Of a DNA stretch of 64,000 nucleotides, positions 2,979-35,555 are shown one piece after another (within the stretch, counting starts at the first letter, position 1; the number at the start of each line of letters is the position of its first letter). The notes beneath the pieces are model-generated. The model had not been told where the DNA came from. It saw only the letters and a list, made by a program, of their open reading frames with translations, and ran no database searches. Location of the stretch: the NCBI GenBank assembly GCA_021821305.1, contig JAKACP010000001.1, positions 132,934 to 196,933 on the forward strand, written 5' to 3'. This DNA is from a bacterium. GTDB taxonomy: Bacteria > Patescibacteriota > Minisyncoccia > Moranbacterales > UBA1568. The translations under genes were made by a program, and so were the position numbers.

Positions 2979-3635
2979 ATGGAATACCATCCGTTCATAC
3001 AGTTCGCCGCGGGAGAAGGCGTGCCGATGCAGACCATCGCGCTTCTGCTCATGCTCCCCCTCGTCGCGACCCTCGTCGCGTTCTTCCGGCAGGTCGTCGG
3101 TATCAAGGCGTTCGGCATCTATACGCCGTCGATCGTCACGTTCGCCTTCGTCGCGTTCGATCCGAAGGGATTCAAGTACGGGATCGGGATCTTCTTGGCG
3201 GTCATATTCGTCGGCATGGTATCACGGTATATCCTCAAGCCGTTCCGGCTGCTCTATCTCCCGCGCGTCGCCATCACGCTCTCGCTCATCTCGTTCGTCA
3301 TGTTCGCCATCCTCATCTTCGGCGGCTATTTCCAGCGCACGGGGCTCGCGGCCGTGTCCATCTTCCCGCTCCTCATCATGATCACGCTCGCCGAAAAATT
3401 CGTCGCGGTCCAGATCGAGAAGGGCAACCGGGTCGCGCTCCTGCTCGCCGGCGAGACGCTCGTCATCTCGCTCGTCGGATACGCGCTCGTCAGCTCGTCC
3501 GCGGTGACCCTCACCATGCTCGTCTATCCGTGGCTCGTGCTCCTCGCCATCCCGGTCAATATCATGCTCGGGAAATGGACGGGCCTGCGCCTCGTCGAGT
3601 ATGTCCGTTTCTACAAGATCCTCAGCAAAAAATGA
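2979..3635 (+). CDS. polytopic (6-7 TM) membrane protein, 7TM_transglut-like, partner of RimK-like ATP-grasp ligase systems
   Basis: 218 aa, 6-7 hydrophobic helices, no soluble domain; stop is 4 nt before the ATP-grasp gene start. Family assignment (7TM domain usually fused to an inactive transglutaminase, PF14402-like) is inferred from context plus topology, not from a search. Confidence 0.55.
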   Translation: MEYHPFIQFAAGEGVPMQTIALLLMLPLVATLVAFFRQVVGIKAFGIYTPSIVTFAFVAFDPKGFKYGIGIFLAVIFVGMVSRYILKPFRLLYLPRVAITLSLISFVMFAILIFGGYFQRTGLAAVSIFPLLIMITLAEKFVAVQIEKGNRVALLLAGETLVISLVGYALVSSSAVTLTMLVYPWLVLLAIPVNIMLGKWTGLRLVEYVRFYKILSKK

Positions 3636-3639
3636 CGCC

Positions 3640-5034
3640 ATGTTCGAGCTTCTCAAAAAAAGCGGTGGCATATTGGGAATGAACGCGCGCAACCTCGAGT
3701 ATGTGCGTCCTTTGAACCGTCGCCAGGCGCGGGAGATCGCCGACAACAAGCTCCTCGCGAAGCGGGTCCTCAAAAAAAACGATCTCCCCGTTCCGGGGCT
3801 CATCGCGAAGATCCGGACCGAGGAAGACCTCGAGTCCTTCGACTGGTCCACGCTTCCGGGCAGTTTCGCCCTCAAGCCGAACCGCGGATTCGGCGGCGAG
3901 GGAATCGTCGTCGTCTACGGACGGAAGAAGGGGCGCGATGACGCGTGGGTCAAGGCGAACGGTTCGGTCATCACCGTCGACGACCTGCGGGCGCATATCC
4001 GCAACATCCTCGACGGATCGTTCTCGCTCACCAACACTCCCGACATCGCGTTCTTCGAGGAGCGGCTCAAACTGCTCAAACTCTTCAAGCCGTACGCCTA
4101 CAAGGGAATCCCCGACATCCGCGTCATCGTGTTCAATGGGATACCGATCATGGCGATGCTCCGTCTCCCGACCCGGCAGTCCGACGGCAAGGCCAATCTC
4201 CAACAGGGCGCCATCGGTGTCGGCCTTGACCTCGCGACCGGGACGACGACGACCGCCGTCCTCGGGAAATCGCATATCATCGAGCACATCCCGAGAACCC
4301 GCCTCGTGCTCTCCGGTCTCAAGCTCCCCTACTGGAACGAGATCCTCCGCATCGCGGTCGAGTCCCAGCGCATCTCCGGACTCGGATTCCTCGGTGCCGA
4401 CATCGCGCTCGATCGCGATCGCGGCCCCGTCATTCTCGAGCTCAACGCGCGCCCAGGACTTTCCATCCAGGTCGCCAACCTCTCGGGACTCAAGACCCGT
4501 CTCAACCGCGTGAAGGGGCTCAAGGTCAGGACGACCGAGCGCGGCATCCTCCTCGGCAAACATCTCTTCGGCGGCGAGATCGAGGAAGAGATCGAGGAAC
4601 TCTCCGGACGGCGCGTCATCGGTTCGACCGAAAAGGTGAAGCTCATCGGCAAGGACGGCAAGGAGATCGAGATCGAGGCCAAGATCGATACCGGCGCCGA
4701 TTCCACCTCGATCGATACCGCGCTCGCGCGCGAGCTCGGATTCGGGGATGCGCTCTCGACCTTCGAGAGTCGCCTTGGCGGGCAGGACGTCATGAAGGAA
4801 CTGTCGAAAGAGGAACGGCAGAAGCTCTTCTCCGGTATCCCGGATCTCGCGGATACGGTCCCCGTGAAATCATCCCATGGAACGAGCTACCGGCCTATGG
4901 TCCGCATCGAATTCGTCATGGACACCGTCACCGTCCCGGCGAAGGTCTCGGTGATCGATCGGTCGGGACTCGAATATCCCGTCATCATCGGACGGAAGAG
5001 TCTCCGGAAATTCCTCGTGGACGTGAATAAATAA
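3640..5034 (+). CDS. alpha-L-glutamate-ligase-like (RimK-related, ATPgrasp_ST type) ATP-grasp enzyme fused to a C-terminal retropepsin-like aspartic protease domain
   Basis: N-terminal GMNARNLEYVRPLNRRQAREIADNKLLAKRVL...ILELNARPGLSIQ matches the TIGR02291/PF14397-type ligase. The C-terminus carries IDTGADSTSID (DTG aspartic-protease signature) and resembles the RimK-associated 'Zn_protease' (PF05618) domain. Start at ATG 3640, tight after the 7TM stop; the ORF also allows 3601. Confidence 0.75.
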   Translation: MFELLKKSGGILGMNARNLEYVRPLNRRQAREIADNKLLAKRVLKKNDLPVPGLIAKIRTEEDLESFDWSTLPGSFALKPNRGFGGEGIVVVYGRKKGRDDAWVKANGSVITVDDLRAHIRNILDGSFSLTNTPDIAFFEERLKLLKLFKPYAYKGIPDIRVIVFNGIPIMAMLRLPTRQSDGKANLQQGAIGVGLDLATGTTTTAVLGKSHIIEHIPRTRLVLSGLKLPYWNEILRIAVESQRISGLGFLGADIALDRDRGPVILELNARPGLSIQVANLSGLKTRLNRVKGLKVRTTERGILLGKHLFGGEIEEEIEELSGRRVIGSTEKVKLIGKDGKEIEIEAKIDTGADSTSIDTALARELGFGDALSTFESRLGGQDVMKELSKEERQKLFSGIPDLADTVPVKSSHGTSYRPMVRIEFVMDTVTVPAKVSVIDRSGLEYPVIIGRKSLRKFLVDVNK

Positions 5035-5044
5035 TCGGAATCAT

Positions 5045-6049
5045 ATGAATGAAAAAGCCGTCGACAAATGGACGAAGCATGGCGGATTCCGATCCTTCCT
5101 GAAATGCGCCACGCGGTGCGGCGTGAAAATCACCGTTCTCTCGAAGGAGAGTCACGTCATCAGACTCGGATACGGCGGCGATGTCGCCTTCCTCAAGGGA
5201 GCCAACGCACCGGTCATGAGGAGAATGGGAAACCTCACCCGGAACAAGGACGTGACCAAACAAATCCTCGAGGATGTCGGTATCCGCACGCCCCGTGGCA
5301 TAGTCGCGAATTCCATCCAAGACGCCATAAAAGCCGTGAAGAAGCACCGGATGCCGTTCCCGCTCATCCTCAAGCCGACCCACGGGTCGCGCTCGCTCGG
5401 CGTGACATGGAACATCCGTTCCGAGCAGGACCTCCGTGACGCTTTTTCGAGTTTCGAAAAGATAAAACGCGAACACTCCCTGAAAAAGGACACGGTGCTG
5501 GTCGAGGAGATGTTCGTCGGCCATGAATATCGGGTGCTCGTCCTCAATGGTCGGGTCATCTCCTGCGTACAAAAGGTCCCTGCAAGCGTCATCGGCGACG
5601 GGACATCGTCGATCAAGAAACTCATCGGTGCATTCAACAAGACCCGCCTCCGCGGATTCAAGATACGCCTCGATGCCATCGCCGAAAATACGATCGCGGA
5701 AAACAAGCTCACGCTTGATTCGATCCTCCCGAAAGGTCGCATACTCAGGCTCCGCAACAACCTCAATATGTCTGATGGCGGCCGGTCGATCGATGTCACG
5801 GCATCCATGCACCGATCCTTCAAGGACCTCTGCGTGAAATCGACCGAAGTCACGGGGCTGTCGTTCGCCGGAGTCGACGTGATCGCGAAGGACCTTTCAA
5901 GGCCGGCAAGGAGGGACAACTATGTCATCCTCGAGCTCAATCCGAATCCGTACTACAACATGAACGAAAAGCCGCTCGCGGAAGGTAAGGGCACCGATGT
6001 CTCCTTCCTTCTCCTGAAACAACTGTTCCCGAATATTCGGAAGAAATGA
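5045..6049 (+). CDS. second ATP-grasp domain protein (cyanophycin-synthetase/RimK-like amidoligase)
   Basis: ATP-grasp hallmarks: PLILKPTHGSRSLGV, EEMFVGHEYRVLVLNG, ILELNPNPYY. 10-nt gap after the previous gene. Confidence 0.7.
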   Translation: MNEKAVDKWTKHGGFRSFLKCATRCGVKITVLSKESHVIRLGYGGDVAFLKGANAPVMRRMGNLTRNKDVTKQILEDVGIRTPRGIVANSIQDAIKAVKKHRMPFPLILKPTHGSRSLGVTWNIRSEQDLRDAFSSFEKIKREHSLKKDTVLVEEMFVGHEYRVLVLNGRVISCVQKVPASVIGDGTSSIKKLIGAFNKTRLRGFKIRLDAIAENTIAENKLTLDSILPKGRILRLRNNLNMSDGGRSIDVTASMHRSFKDLCVKSTEVTGLSFAGVDVIAKDLSRPARRDNYVILELNPNPYYNMNEKPLAEGKGTDVSFLLLKQLFPNIRKK

Positions 6050-6107
6050 ACCCTTGAGAAAACCGGTGTTTCGGTGTAGAATCAGCATACGTTTGCTGAT
6101 TTTATCT

Positions 6108-8657
6108 ATGAAAATATTCTTTTTTAAGCCAAAAAAATTGATTTCCGGCGGAGAGAAGCCTGAAAAACCGAAGCGCTCGCGGAAATGGCTTCCGTTGGCG
6201 CTCAAGGTGTCCGGAATCCTGCTTATCCTCGGCTCGATCGCGGCGATAAGCCTGTTCGCCTGGGTCGCGAAGGACCTGCCCTCCCCGGGCAAGGTCAACA
6301 AGCGCGTCATCGCCGAATCGACCAAGATCTACGACCGATCCGGCGAGCATCTCCTCTATGAGGTGCACGGCGAGGAAAAGCGCACCCTTATCCCGTTCGA
6401 GGAGATTCCTCCGACCGTCCGCGCGGCGACACTTGCTCTTGAGGATCAGGACTTCTACTCCCACCACGGTATCAAACTGACCTCGATCGCACGCGCCATC
6501 CTCAAGGATGTCATCGAGCTGAGCGCGGCACAGGGAGCATCCACCATCACCCAACAGTTCGTCAAGAATTCCCTCCTGACCAACGAAAAAACACTCATCA
6601 GAAAGGTAAAAGAGGTCATCTTGTCGCTCGAGATCGAACAAAAATTCTCCAAGGATGAGATTCTCGCGATGTATCTCAATGAGATTCCCTACGGATCGAA
6701 CGCGTACGGGATAGAGGCGGCGGCGCAGACGTTCTTCGGGAAGAGCGCGAAGGATCTTTCCCTCGATGAGGCGGCGCTTCTCGCCGGACTCCCCAAGGCT
6801 CCGACCTACTATTCACCCTACGGGGCCAGGGCCGAACAGTTGAAAATACGGCAGGAAGTGGCCCTGAACCAGATGGCGAAACTCGGCTACATCACCCAGG
6901 AAGAGGCTGACGCCGCGAAACAAGTCGACGTATTCGGGAAACTTTCCATAAATCGGGACGCTATCGCGGCGCCCCACTTCGTCATGTATGTCCGCGACTA
7001 TCTCACCGAGAAGTACGGCGAAGGCGCGATAGAGTCGATGGGCCTCAAGGTCTACACCACGCTCGACTGGGACAAGCAGATGAAGGCTGAGGAGATCGTC
7101 AGGGAAAAGGCTGCGGAAAACGCCACAAAGTGGAACGCGGAAAACGCGTCTTTGGTCGCGATCGATCCGAAAACCGGGCAGATACTCACGATGGTCGGCT
7201 CGAAAGATTACTTCGACAAGGAGATCGACGGGCAGGTCAACGTCGCCATTCGGGACCGCCAGCCGGGATCCTCGTTCAAACCGTACGTTTACCTCGCCGC
7301 CTTCATCAAGGGATACACGCCGGAAACCATGCTCTATGACGTGGAAACCGAGTTTGAGACGGCGGAAGGCAAGGAATACAAGCCGCAGAATTATGATGGG
7401 ACGTTCCGTGGTCCGCTTCATATGAAGGAGGCGCTCGCACAGTCCCTCAATATCCCGGCTGTGAAGACGCTCTACCTCGTCGGCGTCAAGGATGCCATAA
7501 CGCTCGCGAAAAGCCTCGGCATCACCGGACTCAACGACGAGAACCGCTACGGCCTCTCGCTCGTCCTCGGCGGAGGGGAGATCACCCTCCTCGACCACGT
7601 GAGTGCCTACTCGACGCTCGCCACCGGCGGCGTGAAGCATGATAAGACAGCCATTCTCCGCATAGAGAGCGCCCAAGGGGAGGTCATCGAGGAATTCAAG
7701 CCGGATGCAGGCGAACGGGTGATCGAGGAAAAATACGTGGCCATGCTCGATCATATCATGTCGACAAACGCCTATCGGGCGCCGGTATTCGGGGAAAACA
7801 GTCCATTGCGCTCCGATAATCGTCCGATCGCGGCCAAAACCGGCACCACGAACGAATTCCGCGACGGATGGACCATCGGACACACGCCATCGATTTCGGT
7901 CGGTGTATGGGCCGGGAACAACGACAACACCCCGATGAGAGCCGGGGCTGATGGCATCAATGTCGCCGCGCCGATTTTCCGATCTTTCATGGATTTCGCC
8001 CTGCAGAATACGGCCATCGAGAAATTCCCCGAATACAAGCCGGATGAGTTTTTCAACAAGGATGAGGAGTGGATGAAAAAACCGATGTTAAGCGGAAAAC
8101 TCGAGGAAACGAAGGATTTGAAGGTCTGTGAGATAGATGATGATGAGTACTGTCTCGCGAGCAAATATTGCCGCGACAAGGATATAGAAAAGAAGGATTT
8201 CATCGATGCTCACTCGATACTCCACTATATAACCCGCGACGACCCGCGCGGATCGAAGCCGGATAAGCCGGATCGCGACCCTCAATACAAGAATTGGGAA
8301 AAGGGCGTGGAGGAATGGTATAAGAAGGAAAAGAAGATCGTTATCGATGAGCCTCCGAAAAACGAGTGTTCACAGGATGATTTCCCTGATTATCTTCCAA
8401 TGGTATCACTTTCCGCGCCGGATTCCGCTGGCTCATCGTTCTCCATAGAGGCAAGAGCTGACGCTCCGTACGAAGTGGAGTATCTCAAGATATTCGTCGA
8501 TGGTTCGGAAATAGCGTCCGGATCCAGTAGCTCGCTGTCAACAACCTATTCCGTTCCGCTTACGAAAAACAATTCCACGGTGACCGTGGAAGTGAAACTG
8601 AGGGATAAGAACGGGAATGAGAAAGGAACACAGAAAAGCGTTTCCGTAAGTTTCTAA
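6108..8657 (+). CDS. class A penicillin-binding protein (bifunctional glycosyltransferase/transpeptidase, PBP1A-like)
   Basis: GT51 motifs (ALEDQDFYSHHGI, ITQQFVKN) and transpeptidase SxxK/KTGT (GSSFKP, KTGTT). Start placed at ATG 6108; the ORF opens at 6054. Confidence 0.9.
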   Translation: MKIFFFKPKKLISGGEKPEKPKRSRKWLPLALKVSGILLILGSIAAISLFAWVAKDLPSPGKVNKRVIAESTKIYDRSGEHLLYEVHGEEKRTLIPFEEIPPTVRAATLALEDQDFYSHHGIKLTSIARAILKDVIELSAAQGASTITQQFVKNSLLTNEKTLIRKVKEVILSLEIEQKFSKDEILAMYLNEIPYGSNAYGIEAAAQTFFGKSAKDLSLDEAALLAGLPKAPTYYSPYGARAEQLKIRQEVALNQMAKLGYITQEEADAAKQVDVFGKLSINRDAIAAPHFVMYVRDYLTEKYGEGAIESMGLKVYTTLDWDKQMKAEEIVREKAAENATKWNAENASLVAIDPKTGQILTMVGSKDYFDKEIDGQVNVAIRDRQPGSSFKPYVYLAAFIKGYTPETMLYDVETEFETAEGKEYKPQNYDGTFRGPLHMKEALAQSLNIPAVKTLYLVGVKDAITLAKSLGITGLNDENRYGLSLVLGGGEITLLDHVSAYSTLATGGVKHDKTAILRIESAQGEVIEEFKPDAGERVIEEKYVAMLDHIMSTNAYRAPVFGENSPLRSDNRPIAAKTGTTNEFRDGWTIGHTPSISVGVWAGNNDNTPMRAGADGINVAAPIFRSFMDFALQNTAIEKFPEYKPDEFFNKDEEWMKKPMLSGKLEETKDLKVCEIDDDEYCLASKYCRDKDIEKKDFIDAHSILHYITRDDPRGSKPDKPDRDPQYKNWEKGVEEWYKKEKKIVIDEPPKNECSQDDFPDYLPMVSLSAPDSAGSSFSIEARADAPYEVEYLKIFVDGSEIASGSSSSLSTTYSVPLTKNNSTVTVEVKLRDKNGNEKGTQKSVSVSF

Positions 8658-8677
8658 GGATTTCCGGTTATCCTGAC

Positions 8678-8705
8678 AAAAAATCCCCTTTTCGGGGATT
8701 TTTTT
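8678..8705. terminator. bidirectional intrinsic terminator between PBP (+) and DciA-like (-) genes
   Basis: AAAAAATCCCCttttcGGGGATTTTTTT: GC stem with A-tract upstream and T-tract downstream. Confidence 0.6.
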
Positions 8706-9015
8706 AAATTTCTGACACCTTTATTTCCGAAACGATCTCTTCTCCGATTTCCTGATTTATCTTCATCCGGATCGACTCCCGATTGGTCCAGACTTCACCG
8801 ACCCAGAGTGAATTCTGCGAGAAAAGAAAGAGTTTCCCGTCTTTCCAGAATTTCGGGGATATATTCTCCTTTCCTCGGATACCATACTGCGACAAGAGTA
8901 TTTTTTCCGCGAGAAAGAATATCGTCTTTTCATCGAGATCCGTCTTCGTCGGATGCGTCTTCTTTTTTCCTGATGGGCCGCCACCTAAGGAAAGATAGTC
9001 GGAAAGTTTTTTCAT
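8704..9015 (-). CDS. DUF721/DciA-like protein (putative replicative-helicase operating factor)
   Basis: 103 aa directly downstream of dnaN. The C-terminal GKLFLFSQNSLWVGEVWTNRESIRMKINQEIGEEIVSEIKV fits the DUF721 pattern (G.L.v.v.s.w..EL......I..kiN..lG...V..I.). Confidence 0.55.
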   Translation of the reverse strand: MKKLSDYLSLGGGPSGKKKTHPTKTDLDEKTIFFLAEKILLSQYGIRGKENISPKFWKDGKLFLFSQNSLWVGEVWTNRESIRMKINQEIGEEIVSEIKVSEI

Positions 9016-9047
9016 ATTCCTGAGAGCCTATCCTGATAGGGTCCTAA

Positions 9048-10205
9048 TTATTTTCTCACCGGCATCGCGATATAGAGGAAATTATCCTTTTCTCCGGCGG
9101 ATTTATCGGAAGACCCTCCTTTCAGGGCGACAGGAGTGGAATTCGAGTTCGCAAAAAAGGTCACTTTCTCGGAATCAAGCACATTGAGACCGTCAAGGAT
9201 ATATCGGGGATTGAATATGATTTCAAGGAGATCATTACCGGCGACATCACAATGTAGGACAGTCTCATTCTCACCCACATCCGCCGATTTCGATGATATC
9301 CGCATCTCACCCTTACTTGGTATGATAGCGACACTCATCTCGCCGTTCGTTTGTGAAGTGAATACGCCCGCCATACGGACCGCGCGGAGAAATTCCTCAC
9401 GGGAAACCGTCGCCTCATAAGCATATGTCTTCGGAAGTATCTGCTTATAATCCGGATACTTCCCATTTATCACCCTTGAAACGATAGAAATACCGTCTAT
9501 TTCGAAAAACACCTGGTTTTCCTCGAATGATACTTTCACGGATTCGGTTTCCGGAGAAATGACGCGCGCTATCTCTTGAAGCGGCAGCTGTGGGATGATA
9601 AAAGATTGGTTTTGTTCCGCGAAACTCGCATATTCGGGAGAAATATCCTTCTTCGGGACGGAAAGGATGTATTCCGCAAGCCGGAAACTGTCCGTCGCGG
9701 CCATATGGATCTCATTGTCCACGAAAAGAAAATTCACACCAGTAAGCTCGATCCGACTCTCATTCACGGAAACACAAGGGAGGAGTTCCTGAAGAGCGGT
9801 TTTAAGCTCTTGAGCAGGGAGAGTGAGGATATATTCCCCTTGCTTCTCCGGAATGATCGGGAAATCCTTCGGATCCAACCCTTTTATCTTCATGTTGTAG
9901 CCGCCGCTCTCGAGTGAAACGGTATTCCCGTCTATATCCATCGAAACCACATCTCCCGCAGGAAGGTTGTGTATGAAATTACTGACGATCTTCACGGGCA
10001 CCGCTATCTCGCTTGTACCCTCGATCTTCGCGCTGACATACGCGGTGACACCTATCTCCAGGTTCGTCGCCGAAAGCTTCAAATTCCCATTGTCGTTCCG
10101 AAGGAGGAAATTACTCAATATGGGAAGCGTGGATTGTTTTCCTGATGCCCGCTCAAGGAATGAAAGTGCTCGGGCGATATTTTCCTGCGTGCAGACGATA
10201 TGCAT
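9048..10205 (-). CDS. dnaN: DNA polymerase III beta sliding clamp
   Basis: 385 aa with the three-domain clamp; MHIVCTQENIARALSFLERASGKQSTLPILSNFLL... is the typical DnaN N-terminus. Confidence 0.95.
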   Translation of the reverse strand: MHIVCTQENIARALSFLERASGKQSTLPILSNFLLRNDNGNLKLSATNLEIGVTAYVSAKIEGTSEIAVPVKIVSNFIHNLPAGDVVSMDIDGNTVSLESGGYNMKIKGLDPKDFPIIPEKQGEYILTLPAQELKTALQELLPCVSVNESRIELTGVNFLFVDNEIHMAATDSFRLAEYILSVPKKDISPEYASFAEQNQSFIIPQLPLQEIARVISPETESVKVSFEENQVFFEIDGISIVSRVINGKYPDYKQILPKTYAYEATVSREEFLRAVRMAGVFTSQTNGEMSVAIIPSKGEMRISSKSADVGENETVLHCDVAGNDLLEIIFNPRYILDGLNVLDSEKVTFFANSNSTPVALKGGSSDKSAGEKDNFLYIAMPVRK

Positions 10206-10449
10206 AACTATAAGTTATAAGAAGAATTTATATAAAAATCATTACTCTTATTAGTGCTGTGAAGATGTGGATAACCCGCTGACTCCGCCCTACCAAGCTT
10301 TTTTCATCGATCATCCTTCGGTATCCGTTTATACAATATGTCGTGTTTTTTAGGAAAAAATGAACTATCCGTTTCCTTGTGATTTTTTATGAACATATAT
10401 TTCCCATATGATACAGGGATATACGGAGGTTATACAACGTTTATCCACC
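10206..10449. promoter_or_regulatory. candidate oriC in the dnaA-dnaN intergenic region (DnaA boxes plus AT-rich DUE-like stretch)
   Basis: Perfect DnaA box TGTGGATAA at 10265..10273. A 1-mismatch box TTATCCACC at 10441..10449 overlaps the dnaA stop. AT-rich tract 10201..10260. Confidence 0.5.
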
Positions 10450-11886
10450 ATATGATTGGTAGAGCTCCGTTTTTATCGCGGAGAGTTCACCTTTCAATCG
10501 AAGATTCTTTTCTATATCTTTTCCTATTTTTTCAAATGCATGAAGTGCGGTCGTATGATCCCTTCCACCGAAAAACTCCCCTATGGAAGAAAATGACATA
10601 TTGAGTTCGCTTCGGAAAAGGTGCATCGCGACCTGTCTTGGGTGTGATATACCTTTTTTTCGGCCTTTCTTGATAAGGTCTTCCTCGGTGACATCGTAGT
10701 GTTTCGTGATGGCGTCGATGATATCCTTCGTTTGGATATTCTTTTTCCCCTGCACGATGAGTTGGGAGAGGATTTTTTCGACTATGGATGTCGATGGTTG
10801 TACTTTATAGAATTCGGAATACGCGATGACACGGTTCAGCGCTCCTTCAAGCTCCCGTATGTTCTGGGTGATGTTTTCAGCTATGAACCGTATCGAATCA
10901 TCATCGAGCGGAATCGATTTTTCCACCACTTTTTTCTTCAGGATAGCCATCCGTGTCTCAAGATTCGGTTGGCTTATATCGACGATCATACCGCCTTCAA
11001 AGCGGGATCTGAGGCGATCCTCGAGCGTCGGTATCGATTTCGGCGGTCGATCGCTTGATATGACGATCTGTTTGTTGATCTGGTAGAGGGCGTTGAAAAT
11101 ATGAAAAAACTCATTCTGCGTCTTTTCACGCCCTGAGAGGAATTGGACATCATCGATGATGAGGAGATCTATCTGCTGGTAGTATTCCTTGAATTTGTCG
11201 ATTTTTTGGTTCCGTATCGACTCGACCAGCTCGCTCGTGAACCGCTCGGAAGTGATATATTTTATGATCTTTTCCGGATGATTTGCCTTTACTTCGTTCC
11301 CAAGCGATTGGAGAAGGTGTGTTTTTCCGAGGCCGACGCCCCCATAGATGAACAAAGGGTTATATGCGCCCCCGAGATTCTGTGAAACCGAAAAACACGC
11401 GGCTCTCGCGAGTTCATTGTTTTCCGCGACGACGAAATCGTCGAATGTGTACCGCGGGTTCAGGTTCGATTCGTGGTAGAGGGCTGTTGTTTGGCGCTGT
11501 GGGACGGAATGTGACGGATGACCTGCTTGGGGTGGAGAGTTGGGATTCTCACTTGTGTGATCGGAAATCGACTGCGTTCGTTGTACCGCGTCTATCGATT
11601 TCATCGGCGTCATCATCGGTTGCTGTTGTGGTCCTGAGATAAAGCATTTTATTCCATTGATCCGCTCATCAAACCCGCGAAGCGATCTGAGGATCTCAAG
11701 ATTATACTTGTTTTCAAGCCATTCTTTCGCAAAGCCGTTCGGGACGCTGATGGTGACCAAGCCGTTTTCATTGGAAAGAATGGAGGTGTTCCGGAACCAT
11801 GTGACGAAATTCGCCTTCGAAATGGAAAGCTCGACCTGTCCCAAAACCCCCTTCCAAAGCTCTTCGTTCGTCATAACTTTTTCCAT
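10441..11886 (-). CDS. dnaA: chromosomal replication initiator DnaA
   Basis: AAA+ Walker A GGVGLGKTHLL, sensor/arginine finger region, and C-terminal DNA-binding domain (ISHPRQVAMHLFRSEL). Confidence 0.95.
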   Translation of the reverse strand: MEKVMTNEELWKGVLGQVELSISKANFVTWFRNTSILSNENGLVTISVPNGFAKEWLENKYNLEILRSLRGFDERINGIKCFISGPQQQPMMTPMKSIDAVQRTQSISDHTSENPNSPPQAGHPSHSVPQRQTTALYHESNLNPRYTFDDFVVAENNELARAACFSVSQNLGGAYNPLFIYGGVGLGKTHLLQSLGNEVKANHPEKIIKYITSERFTSELVESIRNQKIDKFKEYYQQIDLLIIDDVQFLSGREKTQNEFFHIFNALYQINKQIVISSDRPPKSIPTLEDRLRSRFEGGMIVDISQPNLETRMAILKKKVVEKSIPLDDDSIRFIAENITQNIRELEGALNRVIAYSEFYKVQPSTSIVEKILSQLIVQGKKNIQTKDIIDAITKHYDVTEEDLIKKGRKKGISHPRQVAMHLFRSELNMSFSSIGEFFGGRDHTTALHAFEKIGKDIEKNLRLKGELSAIKTELYQSYGG

Positions 11887-11992
11887 AAACCGGGCGTCAT
11901 AGCCTATGATCGACGAATCCCTACACCCTTACGCCATCCTCGGAAAGGTGAAAAGAAGTATATCATGTTTCCGTTTTTTGGTCGCCATCCTA

Positions 11993-12012
11993 TGTGAATA
12001 ATCGGTGGATAA
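11993..12012. promoter_or_regulatory. pair of imperfect DnaA boxes upstream of dnaA in the dnaA-rpmH divergent region
   Basis: TGTGAATAA (11993..12001) and GGTGGATAA (12004..12012), each one mismatch from TGTGGATAA, in tandem. Possible second oriC half or dnaA autoregulation site. Confidence 0.4.
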
Positions 12013-12114
12013 ATCAAGAATATGGGGTAATTATCGCATGGTTGACTTCTTCGCGGCATCCTGGTATCCTTCTTTTATGTCGAACCGACGTTTTTTTAGG
12101 TTTTTCTCAAAAAT

Positions 12115-12249
12115 ATGAAGCGTACGTACCAACCGAAGAAGCTCCGCCGAGCCAAAAGACACGGATTCTTGGAGCGGATGAACACCGCGGGGGGGCAGAA
12201 AGTCATCAAAAGCAGGAGAACTCAGGGGCGAAAAAAGCTTTCCGTTTAG
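12115..12249 (+). CDS. rpmH: 50S ribosomal protein L34
   Basis: 44-aa ORF below the track's size cut-off: [44 protein letters not shown]. Confidence 0.9.
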
Positions 12250-12263
12250 AGCTTGTTCAATAT

Positions 12264-12611
12264 ATGCTTCCGAAATCGCTCCGCTTGAAAAATTCGGAAC
12301 TCTTTCAAAAGGCTTTTCGTTTCGGAAAGCCCTTTTTCTTTGGAAATATGGGGTGTAAGGTCATATTTTCCCAAGATATGGGGAAAAAAGTAGGATTTTC
12401 CCTTTCGAAAAAGATTTTTCCTCGTGCCGTCGACCGAAATCGGGCCAAAAGGGCTCTGTCGGATGCCGCGGCATTTTTTTGGGATGATATACCCCAAGGT
12501 GTTTTCGTGGTATTCTTCCTTCGTGCCCATGAAGGATTCCTCGGGAAAGAGATCGTGATGAAGGACTTTTCCGGCCTGATTTCGAAGGTAAATGCCTCTA
12601 AACCCAAATGA
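12264..12611 (+). CDS. rnpA: ribonuclease P protein component
   Basis: MLPKSLRLKNSELFQKAFRFGKP...FPRAVDRNRAKRALSDAA is the RnpA fold with RNR motif; sits directly after rpmH; internal ATG of ORF 11994..12611. Confidence 0.85.
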   Translation: MLPKSLRLKNSELFQKAFRFGKPFFFGNMGCKVIFSQDMGKKVGFSLSKKIFPRAVDRNRAKRALSDAAAFFWDDIPQGVFVVFFLRAHEGFLGKEIVMKDFSGLISKVNASKPK

Positions 12612-13351
12612 ATATGATGCAGATATACGATGCGATAGTCTATGAGCCGCTTTACAACAGTATCGTTTTCTTCGCTGACCTCTTTCCGGGCGCGAATTTC
12701 GGCCTCGCCATCATCGCGACGACGATCCTTATAAAATTCCTTTTTCTGTCGCTTTCGAAAAAACAGATCGAAACACAGAAAAAAATGCAGGAAATACAGC
12801 CGAAATTGAAGGAAATACAGCAGAAATACAAGAATGACAAGGAGCGGCAGGCGAAGGAACTGATGGAGTTCTACCGCACCAACAAGGTGAATCCGTTTTC
12901 CGGCTGTCTCCCGCTTCTCGTGCAGATATTCTTCCTGATCACCATATATCAGATCATCATGAAGATCTCGGCCACGGGATTTTCAATAGATTCGTCCCTG
13001 CTTTACCCGTTCGTTTCCAATCCGGGGACCCTCTCGCATACCTTCTTCGGCATAGCGGATCTCGCTGTCCCGAGCGCTCTTTTTGCCATTCTCGCCGCTG
13101 TCGGCCAGTATTTCCAGATGAAGATGCTTATAAAGATGCAGCCGGAAAAACCGAAGGATGCGAAAAAAGATACGGATGAACCGGATTTCGCGACCATCAT
13201 GAACAAACAGATGCTTTATATCGGTCCGGCGCTTACGCTTTGGATCGGGTTCACCTTTCCAGCCGGACTTTCCTTGTATTGGCTTGTTTCCACGATTTTT
13301 GCGATCATACAACAGCAGTTCATCCTGAAGAAGAAGGAAGTTAATCCCTAA
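12608..13351 (+). CDS. yidC: membrane protein insertase YidC (short form)
   Basis: Overlaps the rnpA stop; 247 aa with the YidC/Oxa1 core helices (GCLPLLVQIFFLITIYQ...GLSLYWLVSTIFAIIQQ). Confidence 0.9.
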   Translation: MNMMQIYDAIVYEPLYNSIVFFADLFPGANFGLAIIATTILIKFLFLSLSKKQIETQKKMQEIQPKLKEIQQKYKNDKERQAKELMEFYRTNKVNPFSGCLPLLVQIFFLITIYQIIMKISATGFSIDSSLLYPFVSNPGTLSHTFFGIADLAVPSALFAILAAVGQYFQMKMLIKMQPEKPKDAKKDTDEPDFATIMNKQMLYIGPALTLWIGFTFPAGLSLYWLVSTIFAIIQQQFILKKKEVNP

Positions 13352-13361
13352 GATCGCACCT

Positions 13362-13850
13362 ATGGGAGAAAAAAATTTCCAATCCGTCGTCATGGAAACA
13401 TTGGAGGATGTTCTCGCAAAAATCGGGGTAGAGGATGCGAACATATCGATCCGGTCTGGACGAAGCGGGTTGAACGAGGCTTTCATCTGCGCGGTTTCGG
13501 TCAATAGGGATGATTCGAAGCTGCTTATCGGACAGCATGGAGCGACGCTTTCCGCCCTGCAACACCTCACCCAGGTGCTTGCGAAGCAGAAATCATCCGA
13601 ATACGAGGGATTCTCGGTGGATATCAACGAATACTGGAAGGGAAAGCAATCCCTTCTCGAACGTGATGCGGAAGAGGCCGCTCACAAAGTGATCGCATCC
13701 GGACGACCGGTGCACCTGCGGCCCATGCTTTCCTATGAACGAAAAATCATCCACCTGACGCTTTCCAAGAACGACAAGGTGGAAACCGAAAGTCTCGGTA
13801 AGGGTGAGGAGCGGAAGGTCGTCGTGAAGCCGGCCGCACTCCTTTCCTGA
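13362..13850 (+). CDS. jag: Jag/KhpB RNA-binding protein (KH and R3H domains)
   Basis: Conserved position after yidC; R3H motif region (LRPMLSYERKIIHLTLSKND). Confidence 0.85.
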   Translation: MGEKNFQSVVMETLEDVLAKIGVEDANISIRSGRSGLNEAFICAVSVNRDDSKLLIGQHGATLSALQHLTQVLAKQKSSEYEGFSVDINEYWKGKQSLLERDAEEAAHKVIASGRPVHLRPMLSYERKIIHLTLSKNDKVETESLGKGEERKVVVKPAALLS

Positions 13851-13880
13851 AGTACGAATGTTTTGCCAGGAAAATGAAAT

Positions 13881-13912
13881 ATCCATCCGAACAGGGATGG
13901 ATTTTCCTTTGT
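13881..13912 (+). terminator. intrinsic terminator after jag
   Basis: ATCCATCCgaacagGGATGGAT stem-loop followed by a T-rich tract. Confidence 0.5.
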
Positions 13913-13967
13913 TTGCCTTTTCCTTCCTCAAAACGTACAATGGGAGGGTACTATTTCGGAAAAGTCT

Positions 13968-15422
13968 ATGGCGATTGCCAGAAAAATCGCGTACAACATC
14001 GTCTTCAATTCCTTTTTGAAGGTGCTTACGACGGTCGCGCTCTCACTCCTCTCCATCCGGCTTATCACGGGATATCTCGGCAAGGAGGGCTTCGGAGACT
14101 ACACCACCATTCTCGCTTTCTTCGCCTTCTTTTCCGCGATCGCGGATCTCGGTATCAGCGCCGTCACCGTAAGGGAGATTTCCCGGGAGGGATCCGATGA
14201 AGAGGATATCCTGAGCCGGGTCGTTTCGCTCCGTATATTCTCCTCTCTCGCGCTTTTCCTGCTCGTCCCCGTCATCCTTTTCTTCTTCGCATACCCGTTC
14301 TCGGTCAAGCTCGGTATTTGGATCACCTCGGGCGCGGTCATATTTTCCTCGTTTTCCCTTTTCTTAAACGGTATTTTCCAGAAAAACATAGCCATGGACC
14401 GTGTCGCCATGGTCGAGTTCTTCGGGAAGCTCGCGCAGGTCGGCGCCGTTTTCGCGGTCGTTTCATTCGATCTCGGCTTTCTCGCGATCGTGTCGACCCT
14501 GGTCATTTCGCTCATATTCAACGCGACCCTCGCCTTCGTTCTGAGCCGAAAATATGTCAGGTTCGCCTTTATCGTCGACGTGGCGTACTGGAAGAAATTC
14601 CTCCACGAGTCGCTTCCGCTCGGCGGGAGCGCACTCATAACCTTCTTTTACTTCAAATTGGACGCCATACTCCTCTCCATTCTCCAAGGGAGCGCCGCGG
14701 TCGGTATCTATGGCGTGGCGTACAAGGTCATGGAGAACCTGACGTTCTTCCCAGCCATGCTCGCCGGGCTCATCCTCCCCCTCCTCGCGAGGTCCGTCTT
14801 TACGGACAAGGAAAAATTCCGTGATATCGCGGACACCACGTTCCGCGTGTTCCTCATCGTCGTCGTACCGATCATCATCGGGGGGATTTTCTTCTCATCG
14901 GATATCATAAGCATCGTGAGCGGATCCGGATTCGAGGAATCGGTCGTCGTGCTCGAGCTCCTACTTCTCTCGCTCGGATTCATCTTTTTCGGCCACTATT
15001 TCAACATGATGCTCATCGTGGGGAACCTTCAGAAAAAACTCATGAAGACGCTCCTGTTCGTGGCCATCCTCAATATCTCCATGAACCTCTTCCTCATACC
15101 GAAATATTCCTATCTCGGAGCGGCGATCGCATCGGTCCTGACCGAGTTCTCGGTCGTCACGCTCACTGGCTTTCTCGTCTACAAGTTCCTCGACTACAAG
15201 CCGTCCTTCGGGAAGATATGGCGGGTATTCCTCGCCGGCCTTTCCATGGCGGCTTTCCTCTACGAGTTTCATGGGGCGCTCCCGTTCATCGTCGCGGGAT
15301 TCCTTTCCGTCTTGGTGTACCTTTTCGCTCTCTGGGCGGTACGCGCGGTGACCAGTCAGGAAATAACCGAGCTTTTTTCGAAGAAACCGACCGTGTTCGT
15401 CCCGCAGGAGGAGATAGTGTAG
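13968..15422 (+). CDS. polysaccharide biosynthesis protein / Wzx-like flippase (MOP superfamily)
   Basis: 484 aa, ~12-14 TM helices, typical Wzx N-terminus (LKVLTTVALSLLSIRLITGYLGKEGFGDY). Confidence 0.8.
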   Translation: MAIARKIAYNIVFNSFLKVLTTVALSLLSIRLITGYLGKEGFGDYTTILAFFAFFSAIADLGISAVTVREISREGSDEEDILSRVVSLRIFSSLALFLLVPVILFFFAYPFSVKLGIWITSGAVIFSSFSLFLNGIFQKNIAMDRVAMVEFFGKLAQVGAVFAVVSFDLGFLAIVSTLVISLIFNATLAFVLSRKYVRFAFIVDVAYWKKFLHESLPLGGSALITFFYFKLDAILLSILQGSAAVGIYGVAYKVMENLTFFPAMLAGLILPLLARSVFTDKEKFRDIADTTFRVFLIVVVPIIIGGIFFSSDIISIVSGSGFEESVVVLELLLLSLGFIFFGHYFNMMLIVGNLQKKLMKTLLFVAILNISMNLFLIPKYSYLGAAIASVLTEFSVVTLTGFLVYKFLDYKPSFGKIWRVFLAGLSMAAFLYEFHGALPFIVAGFLSVLVYLFALWAVRAVTSQEITELFSKKPTVFVPQEEIV

Positions 15423-34752: not shown

Positions 34753-34884
34753 TGATTTGACTACCCGAAGTGTTATCTATGGTATATCGAATCGTTTCTT
34801 CCGTCAATTTTGTTTTACAGAGTGTGGGCCGCTTTTATGATTAAAATATATTAAACAATAAATAATATAAAATGTCAAGTATAT

Positions 34885-35540
34885 TGTTCCACGTGGAACA
34901 TTACACTCTTGTCTTTACGATTGCCAGTTACTCAGATTCAATTTGATATTGTTCCACGTGGAACAATTCTATCGCGACTTTTCTTTGAAGATGTATAAAA
35001 GAAGGACGTGCAAATGTTCCACGTGGAACAAATGTTTTTATATGCGTTGAGTTAAAATGTTCCACGTGGAACATTCTTATGAACATCCATAGATCAGTTC
35101 GGCTCATTCTTAATTGTTCCACGTGGAACAATTGGTCGATATTTTTTTGTGCCTTAAATAAAGAAATTGGTTAATTGTTCGCTTCAAGATAAAGATCATC
35201 GGCATAATGTTCCACGTGGAACAAATATTCAAATAAAAGAAATCGACTCCCAATACCTTAAATTGTTCCACGTGGAACAATTTATTCCTACTCTCTCATC
35301 CATATTAAATTCAAAAACACAAAATGTTCCACGTGGAACATTTTTGTAATATTAAAAACCAGGATATGTTCCACGTGGAACAATTAAGAGAATTTGTTTA
35401 CAACGTCACCTTTCATATGGATTTTGTTCCACGTGGAACAAAATCAGGGAATTCTTAAATCCCTAGAGATCTGCATGTCCGTCACAATGTTCCACGTGGA
35501 ACATTGTTGCTCCTGGGCGCCTTATGTTCCACGTGGAACA
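34885..35540. repeat. array of 12 perfect 16-bp palindromes TGTTCCACGTGGAACA (symmetric parS-like sites) in an AT-rich intergenic region
   Basis: Exact copies start at 34885, 34950, 35015, 35058, 35115, 35208, 35264, 35325, 35367, 35425, 35488, 35525; spacing 37-93 bp. Several extend to 20-26-bp palindromes (e.g. TAAATTGTTCCACGTGGAACAATTTA at 35259..35284). A degenerate half-site lies at 35171..35180. Differs from B. subtilis parS TGTTCCACGTGAAACA by one base. Confidence 0.9.
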
Positions 35541-35555
35541 ATCTTGATAGATATA

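Follow-up and report, generated by a model that had tools for sequence, protein, structure and literature searches.

The 64,000-nucleotide stretch of DNA analysed here (the window, taken at its full length; contig JAKACP010000001.1 of assembly GCA_021821305.1, positions 132,934 to 196,933, from a bacterium of the Moranbacterales, Patescibacteriota) carries at positions 2979-6049 a cassette of three tightly packed open reading frames (ORFs) on the + strand. They encode a seven-transmembrane (7TM) protein, an ATP-grasp ligase fused to a retropepsin-like protease, and a second ATP-grasp protein. The locus is a Patescibacteria-type variant of the RloABC and RimBK systems of Proteobacteria. By analogy with these systems, the module would synthesise and trim poly-glutamate-like peptides at the membrane, a reading to which we give a probability of about 0.55. 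The cassette comprises the following features:

2979-3635, + strand: gene 1, 218 amino acids, PF14402 7TM module
3640-5034, + strand: gene 2, 464 amino acids, fusion of ATP-grasp ligase, acidic linker and retropepsin
3661-4518, + strand: ligase domain of gene 2 (amino acids 8-293), RloC type, alpha-L-glutamate-ligase-like
4564-4611, + strand: linker of gene 2 (amino acids 309-324, from the translation), LFGGEIEEEIEELSGR
4615-5028, + strand: retropepsin domain of gene 2 (amino acids 326-463), RimB/RloA-like
5045-6049, + strand: gene 3, 334 amino acids, stand-alone ATP-grasp, homologue of the CphA G domain

Genes 1 and 2 are separated by 4 nucleotides (TGA-cgcc-ATG) and genes 2 and 3 by 10. The ORF coordinates thus bore out the packing and the gaps given in an earlier note made from the letters of the window (hereafter, the original prediction), except that the stop codon had been counted in the 465 amino acids assigned there to gene 2, whose actual length is 464. 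An ATG at 3601 would extend gene 2 upstream to 477 amino acids; the start at 3640 is favoured by more than 100 homologues of 463-465 amino acids and by the gene calls in two other assemblies. Judged by their strong model matches, the ORFs of the cassette are conserved genes, and chance ORFs are excluded. No paralogues of the cassette genes were found elsewhere in the window.

The N-terminal domain of gene 2 is, from its profile matches, an RloC-type ATP-grasp ligase. Amino acids 17-292 matched PF14397 with 224.9 bits (cut-off 31.4) and amino acids 8-293 matched TIGR02291 with 297.7 bits (equivalog cut-off 314.2), in agreement with the alpha-L-glutamate-ligase-like ATP-grasp proposed by the original prediction. 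An ordinary RimK, named there as the alternative, did not fit: the score against TIGR00768 (RimK) was 47.9 bits, far under the cut-off of 143.4, PF08443 gave a partial match of 42 residues only, and a retropepsin match was present behind the ligase. The ATP-grasp motifs K79, the GFGGEG loop, D254 and E267-L-N269 were invariant in the homologues of gene 2. When an AlphaFold2 (AF2) model of the monomer (predicted local distance difference test, pLDDT, 78) was searched with Foldseek, the best solved matches were RimK (5zct, 7qys), ArgX/LysX and Ddl, with a probability of 1.00 for RimK and Ddl. Since RimK is a poly-alpha-glutamate synthetase and ArgX/LysX extend acidic C-terminal tails, the closeness of the ligase to these enzymes supports the synthesis of poly-glutamate-like peptides.

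The C-terminal domain of gene 2 (amino acids 326-463) matched PF05618, a family now named 'RimB-like' (36.3 bits, cut-off 27, E 6.5e-9), the NCBIfam models RloA1-3 and the PDB entries 9g58 and 9g59 ('putative ATP-dependent zinc protease'; E 1.7e-5), and these matches confirmed the DTG-containing retropepsin domain expected behind the ligase. As the top 50 Foldseek matches of the whole fusion model were ATP-grasp proteins only, the retropepsin assignment rests on sequence models and PDB sequence matches. The motif KIDTGAD is encoded at nucleotides 4681-4701, with the catalytic K-I-D-T-G-A at 4681-4698. K348, D350, R418 and R441 aligned to positions 26, 28, 94 and 117 of the crystallised construct and, by an inferred numbering offset of 20, would correspond to K46, D48, R114 and R137 of RloA. 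In RloA, D48 is the catalytic aspartate and K46, R114 and R137 contact poly-glutamate; RloA requires all four for poly-glutamate cleavage in vitro, and R114 and R137 also in vivo, and mutants of D48, R114 and R137 lose function (PMC12239564). The four residues of gene 2, along with the alanine after DTG that marks retropepsins, were invariant in 73 homologues. No signal peptide was found in gene 2 and the retropepsin domain contains no cysteine, which points to a cytosolic (RimB-like) protease and not to a secreted (RloA-like) one.

Gene 1 matched PF14402 (7TM_transglut) with 93.3 bits (cut-off 25, E 2e-26). Its alignment to the 508-position RloB model was confined to 312-506, the last 195 positions (61.6 bits vs. 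a cut-off of 900), and because only this C-terminal part was aligned, gene 1 corresponds to the 7TM module without the transglutaminase domain, an absence already recognised in the original prediction. Its AF2 model (65 homologues, pLDDT 84) displayed seven long helices, where six or seven had been counted before in this 218-residue protein, plus short amphipathic end helices. By the positive-inside rule, the chain is predicted to begin outside and to end inside the cell; with about 15 Lys/Arg in its cytoplasmic loops and tail, the predicted cytoplasmic face is strongly basic. Glu159, in helix 6, is an invariant column. A fold search with the 7TM model returned no specific relative.

The association of these two genes was conserved far beyond the window. 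The best 120 database matches to the fusion were all of about 464 amino acids, contained both domains and were 69-96% identical, the named ones belonging mostly to Candidatus Moranbacteria/Moraniibacteriota; the contig with the window's own copy is 826 kb long. A locus survey, in which one genome per species was scanned and loci were fetched through the fusion protein, returned 43 loci; most were from Moranbacteria, and the others (43-59% identity) came from Paceibacteria, Parcubacteria, a complete Dojkabacteria genome and unclassified Patescibacteria. The 7TM gene directly preceded the fusion in all 38 of the 43 loci with enough upstream sequence, and this obligate pairing spans Moran-, Pacei-, Parcu- and Dojkabacteria. 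The survey of related genomes suggested by the original prediction therefore found the fusion and the 7TM pair constant. A reading of the fusion as a unique local departure was rejected: with more than 100 near-full-length homologues and 43 species loci, the fused form is the norm among Patescibacteria.

The ligase domain was the best conserved of the neighbourhood in Moranbacteria, with a median identity of 77% to its counterpart in the window; the 7TM protein and the retropepsin domain each reached 68%, as compared with 65% for PBP1A, 63% for RuvC, 59% for YebC and 50% for DnaN among the neighbours. By these identities, and with the caveat that the loci were fetched through the fusion, the core pair is at least as constrained as the housekeeping genes around it, and is under strong purifying selection.

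An exhaustive search of 1.84 billion representatives yielded 2121 relatives, 446 of them at E <= 1e-30. Their architectures included ligase plus retropepsin, the same pair followed by YdjC or by a second ATP-grasp, and a large class of about 770-820 amino acids with a MATCAP domain behind ligase and retropepsin; unfused RloC-like relatives of about 300-330 amino acids were also found. In the locus L046 (GCA_964391305.1, 1870-10678), YebC and RuvC are followed by a 516-amino-acid PKD-PKD-7TM protein, an 800-amino-acid fusion of ligase, degenerate retropepsin and MATCAP, two ATP-grasp genes, a second MATCAP-family gene and a further ATP-grasp gene; domains of the MATCAP family, the tubulin detyrosinase family, are thus tied to bacterial ATP-grasp ligases in this locus. 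The outer domain of the 7TM protein is interchangeable, since it is PKD in L046, transglutaminase in Proteobacteria and absent in the window. Taken as a whole, the system resembles a kit in which peptide 'writers' and 'erasers' are exchanged around a ligase/7TM core that stays constant.

The position of gene 3 is a variable accessory slot, and gene 3 is not part of the core. An orthologue was present in only 12 related loci besides the window (median identity 51%). Elsewhere the slot held a RimK-like plus GshB-like ligase pair, a YheC/D-like ligase with a GT4 glycosyltransferase and at times a MATCAP-like protein, a second CphA-G-like ligase with a RimK-DUF3541 fusion, or larger mixes of ligases, MATCAP-like and DUF3541 proteins; some loci had nothing between the fusion and the downstream genes. 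The cyanophycin-synthetase-like identity given to the second ATP-grasp by the original prediction was upheld, but this ATP-grasp is not a conserved component of the system. The presence of RimK-, GshB-, YheCD- and CphA-G-like ligases, MATCAP-like peptidases and DUF3541 proteins, in the slot or fused, fits a peptide-chain chemistry.

The segment between the ligase and the protease stood out by its conservation. When the window protein was aligned with 14 diverse fusions from Patescibacteria, FGGEIEEEIEE was the longest invariant run (11 residues), the next longest being DTGA and FEER with 4 residues each. The synonymous codons of the motif varied freely, which indicated selection on the linker peptide and not on the DNA. 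Each position of the motif was invariant or at least 90% conserved in 73 Moranbacteria proteins, and most HMMER-found representatives with 45-60% identity and DTGA kept the pattern E-hydrophobic-E-x-E-hydrophobic-E-E; the claim of conservation rests mainly on these two unbiased sets. The motif was also invariant in 46 of 46 fetched loci; these loci, like those behind the 15-sequence alignment, were selected partly by the peptide EIEEEIEE, and both sets are biased.

The linker appeared to be linked to the state of the protease. Of 97 representatives of at least 400 amino acids, 36 have retained D[TS]G and 61 have lost it; an acidic linker (defined as at least 5 D/E in 8 positions) was present in 13 of the former and in 1 of the latter (Mann-Whitney p = 3e-5, phylogeny uncontrolled). 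Unfused RloC-like proteins stop about 0-15 residues past the helix that precedes the linker, and the linker is absent from them. These distributions suggest that the motif arrived with the fusion and decays where the protease dies, and point to a function tied to the protease. In the AF2 model amino acids 313-328 were of low confidence, with a low-confidence helix placed at the linker.

On the reading that we favour, the ATP-grasp domain would work at the cytoplasmic side of its 7TM partner and use ATP to lengthen a peptide or acceptor at the C-terminal carboxylate, one L-glutamate (or other acidic residue) at a time. The retropepsin domain, which must pair with that of a second copy to build a two-aspartate active site, would cut poly-glutamate in the cytoplasm, limit or recycle the chain length and probably stimulate the ligase as RimB does RimK. 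The 7TM protein, with its basic cytoplasmic face and intramembrane glutamate, would anchor the enzyme and most likely pass or present the product to the envelope. Gene 3 would be an optional second 'writer', which attaches another kind of residue or supplies a primer. The binding of RimB to RimK, the resulting stimulation of poly-glutamate synthesis and the activity of a natural RimB-RimK fusion (PMC11957791) provide a precedent for both activities in one chain.

The acidic linker would most likely sit in the positively charged channel of the protease, as an in-cis pseudosubstrate or a regulatory element. A more specific and rather doubtful proposal is that GGEIEEEIEE, a few residues before the first retropepsin strand, is a built-in target of the protease, either a pseudosubstrate latch or an autoprocessing site; the latter may be likened to the N-terminal cleavage site of the retroviral protease in Gag-Pol. 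If the linker were cleaved, the protease would be freed and the ligase left with an acidic ...EIEEE tail, the kind of C-terminus extended by RimK/LysX-type ligases. With such a tail the enzyme would serve as its own primer for poly-glutamylation at the membrane, a self-contained and self-timed writer/eraser switch.

Several observations weigh against the synthesis and trimming of poly-glutamate-like peptides and against the part given to the linker. The TIGR02291 score of gene 2 falls slightly under the cut-off, a shortfall explained by the linker, which replaces the last 26 positions of the model. The linker holds at most 3 consecutive glutamates and so is not a canonical substrate; contiguous runs of at least 5-6 are needed by RimB (PMC11957791) and of at least 8 by RloA (PMC12239564). 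EIEEEIEE was one of the six peptides through which the 43 loci were fetched, so that the apparent invariance of the linker is inflated there, and the association between linker and active site is uncorrected for phylogeny. Finally, the Pseudomonas protease acts outside the cytoplasm, whereas the one encoded here cannot do so unless it is exported, and the logic of the two systems may differ.

The same enzymes could act in reversible protein tagging, an alternative that we consider possible at low odds. In this scheme one specific protein, be it a ribosomal protein of the RpsF kind, a protein of the envelope or the ligase/7TM pair itself, would receive poly-glutamate at its C-terminus from the ligase and lose the tag again through the retropepsin, as with RimK and RimB. 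The accessory ligases would attach a terminal residue that is not acidic and the MATCAP-like peptidases would take it off, in the manner of the tubulin tyrosination cycle. In its favour, acidic protein tails are what RimK/RimB and ArgX/LysX act on, and these are the nearest relatives with a structure or a characterised function; related loci contain MATCAP-family peptidases, either as fusions or as neighbouring genes; and the retropepsin is of the cytosolic type, with neither signal peptide nor cysteine. Against this, RimK systems have nothing that matches the obligate 7TM partner, no notable poly-glutamate or acidic-tailed protein was seen in the 64-kb window, and RpsF is the only known in vivo substrate of RloA and RimB. 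A peptide tag on a protein or membrane target, as put forward in the original prediction, keeps some probability but is not the best-supported option.

The genomic setting bears on a second alternative, in which the ATP-grasp would amidate a carboxylate of an envelope glycopolymer or peptidoglycan precursor, the 7TM protein would be a flippase or scaffold, and the neighbouring penicillin-binding protein (PBP) would reflect a role in the cell wall. We regard it as unlikely. In its favour are the Pfam name and description of PF14397 (sugar-transfer-associated ATP-grasp), the GT4 glycosyltransferase of one accessory cassette type, the PBP1A gene that adjoins in Moranbacteria, and the cell-shape and beta-lactam phenotypes of rlo mutants. 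However, the order YebC-RuvC...PBP1A-DnaN-DnaA was kept within Moranbacteria and lost in most distant lineages. In distant Patescibacteria the pair lies among unrelated genes, and only L034 and L046 keep YebC-RuvC upstream. In other genomes the interval from the fusion to the PBP gene holds 0-5 kb of variable genes. The linkage to PBP is therefore absent outside Moranbacteria and interrupted by variable inserts within it; moreover, the fused protease keeps residues specific for poly-glutamate peptides, and glycosyltransferases are absent from most cassettes, this window included. The position between ruvC and a class A PBP gene, from which the original prediction had drawn a hint of an envelope-associated function, turned out to be a Moranbacteria-wide synteny beside dnaN-dnaA, with inserts of up to about 5 kb and lost elsewhere, and as a lineage synteny with variable inserts it provides weak positional evidence for such a function.

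A pathway for a cyanophycin-like storage polymer was very improbable. Gene 3 matched the G domain of CphA1 (7txv/7lg5, E 4.6e-40, given as E 5e-40 when rounded) as its best solved relative, along with the C-terminal half of GshAB, and the source databases annotate it automatically as 'cyanophycin synthetase'. Against the cyanophycin synthetase model TIGR02068 it aligned to positions 164-474 of 862, with 218 bits (cut-off 850; E 2e-64), which corresponds to the G-domain region of the ATP-grasp only. The label is a misnomer because the other domains of CphA are absent, and the pathway was rejected on domain content (the N and Mur-ligase-like M domains of CphA are lacking, and 218 bits compare with the 850 required). 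Besides, most related loci lack gene 3 or have another gene in its place while retaining the core pair, and the locus encodes no cyanophycinase.

An anti-phage defence or toxin module, which the variable accessory slot and the compactness of the cassette might suggest, is the least credible explanation and was rejected, as PADLOC models matched none of the three proteins and the core is conserved vertically, more than its housekeeping neighbours, at a fixed chromosomal position near dnaA across a class.

The flanks of the cassette were assigned as the original prediction had them, by the following matches:

2314-2847, + strand: ruvC (PF02075, NF000711), not part of the system
6054-8657, + strand: class A PBP gene (TIGR02074, 526 bits), not demonstrably part of the system

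Upstream of gene 1 lie a YebC-family gene, ruvC and then an intergenic gap of 131 nucleotides, in which a promoter and terminator scan gave nothing decisive; downstream of gene 3 the class A PBP gene is followed by dnaN and dnaA on the opposite strand. The window starts with the 3' part of ruvB, as judged by eye, followed by a bacterial PH-domain membrane protein at 804-1427, the YebC/PmpR-family gene and then ruvC, of which 19 nucleotides (2314-2332) are shared with the YebC-frame ORF. The synteny of this block (146-2847, from the ruvB-like end to ruvC) was kept across Moranbacteria. An ORF of 103 amino acids at 8704-9015 on the - strand, between the PBP gene and dnaN, was also called as a gene in an independent assembly, where it had no Pfam match.

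Several public records of metagenome-assembled genomes, TPA entries among them (L004, L006, L008, L012, L013, L016 and others) carried the Moranbacteria-type order YebC-RuvC-...-PBP1A-DnaN-DnaA with 68-78% identity under the labels 'uncultured Bdellovibrionales' or 'Candidatus Fimivivens', and these labels are probably wrong.

Two other regions of the window differed in base composition. The guanine plus cytosine (GC) content of positions 8000-14000, which hold the 3' end of the PBP gene and dnaN-dnaA-yidC (YidC family, PF02096), was about 46%, as compared with 56-60% in the surrounding genes; since related genomes share this gene order, the region is unlikely to result from a chimeric assembly. 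At 34869-35543, in an AT-rich and apparently non-coding region (about 44% GC vs. about 57% elsewhere), the perfect 16-bp palindrome TGTTCCACGTGGAACA occurs 12 times, irregularly spaced by 37-121 bp. The TTCCAC core of TGTTCCACGTGGAACA resembles a DnaA box (6 of 9 positions), and the array, about 23 kb from dnaA, could be oriC-like or a regulator-binding array.

The Patescibacteria form represents a minimal two-gene version of the Rlo system, with all the catalytic parts in one soluble chain. Its unusually strong selection in genomes of less than 1 Mb suggests a core role in these poorly understood episymbionts. The linker, the natural series of active and dead proteases, and the interchangeable accessory ligases and MATCAP-like peptidases offer handles on the chemistry and on the coupling between writing and erasing.

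The first prediction of these amidoligase systems is reportedly that of Iyer et al. in 2009. No description of the Patescibacteria form, the pairing with a bare 7TM protein, the accessory slot, the MATCAP class or the linker was found in the literature covered, the founding survey of 2009 lying outside that coverage. The sequences themselves are publicly deposited under generic names that were assigned automatically. The 'writers' and 'erasers' discussed above present a functional analogy, and only that, with the tubulin tail code, in which ATP-grasp writers (TTL/TTLL) are opposed by peptidase erasers (MATCAP, a tubulin detyrosinase, and others). In contrast with the tubulin code, the system is bacterial and partnered with a membrane protein, no tubulin is involved, and the MATCAP domain occurs in relatives but not in this window.

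Gene 3 belongs to the same ATP-grasp subfamily as the G domain of CphA1 (7lg5/7txv) and the C-terminal ligase of GshAB (3ln7), over about 300 residues. Members of this subfamily extend a short peptide or the end of a polymer by an amino acid, which is joined to the alpha-carboxylate. Unlike CphA1 and GshAB, gene 3 stands alone, without the polymer-anchoring N domain and the arginine-adding M domain of CphA or the GshA half.

Closer parallels are found in systems characterised in 2025 (RloABC, RimB/RimBK), so that the status of such systems is no longer merely 'proposed', as it was in the original prediction; the proteases of these relatives cut poly-glutamate. Little et al. 2025 (PMC11957791) described RimK-RimB and a natural RimBK hybrid. 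RimK synthesises poly-alpha-glutamate and lengthens the acidic tail of ribosomal protein S6, and RimB is a dimeric retropepsin that trims S6-type tails and cuts internal glutamate runs (PMC11957791). As in RimBK, the window encodes a predicted cytoplasmic ATP-grasp glutamate ligase coupled in a single-chain fusion to a retropepsin of the poly-glutamate-cutting type. In RimBK, however, the protease is N-terminal to a true RimK (PF08443/TIGR00768), whereas here the order is reversed and the ligase is of the RloC type; in addition, RimK systems lack a 7TM partner and have a known target, ribosomal protein S6.

The RloABC operon of Pseudomonas aeruginosa and Gammaproteobacteria (Lormand et al. 2025; PMC12239564) shares with the cassette a PF14397/TIGR02291 ATP-grasp (RloC), a PF14402 7TM protein (RloB) and a PF05618 retropepsin (RloA), encoded together, and the fusion contains the DTGA and the Lys/Arg poly-glutamate-binding residues of RloA. 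In P. aeruginosa the secreted RloA proteases cut poly-glutamate, and the deletion of rloB or rloC suppresses the loss of these proteases (PMC12239564), which indicates that the ligase and the 7TM protein act together, upstream of the protease. The rlo system affects osmotic tolerance, antibiotic sensitivity, biofilm and cell shape in Pseudomonas, and RloABC has been linked in particular to hypo-osmotic tolerance (PMC12239564). Ligase, protease and 7TM protein are separate genes in RloABC (PMC12239564), as the original prediction held to be usual. RloA is separate, secreted and contains disulfide cysteines, whereas here the protease is fused to the C-terminus of the ligase and predicted to be cytoplasmic; RloB has a periplasmic inactive transglutaminase domain that gene 1 lacks; and the gene order is 7TM followed by ligase-protease instead of A-B-C. 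The cassette adds to this plan an invariant acidic linker and a variable slot for accessory ligases and peptidases, in a monoderm-like ultra-small Patescibacterium, whereas RloB is 96% proteobacterial (PMC12239564).

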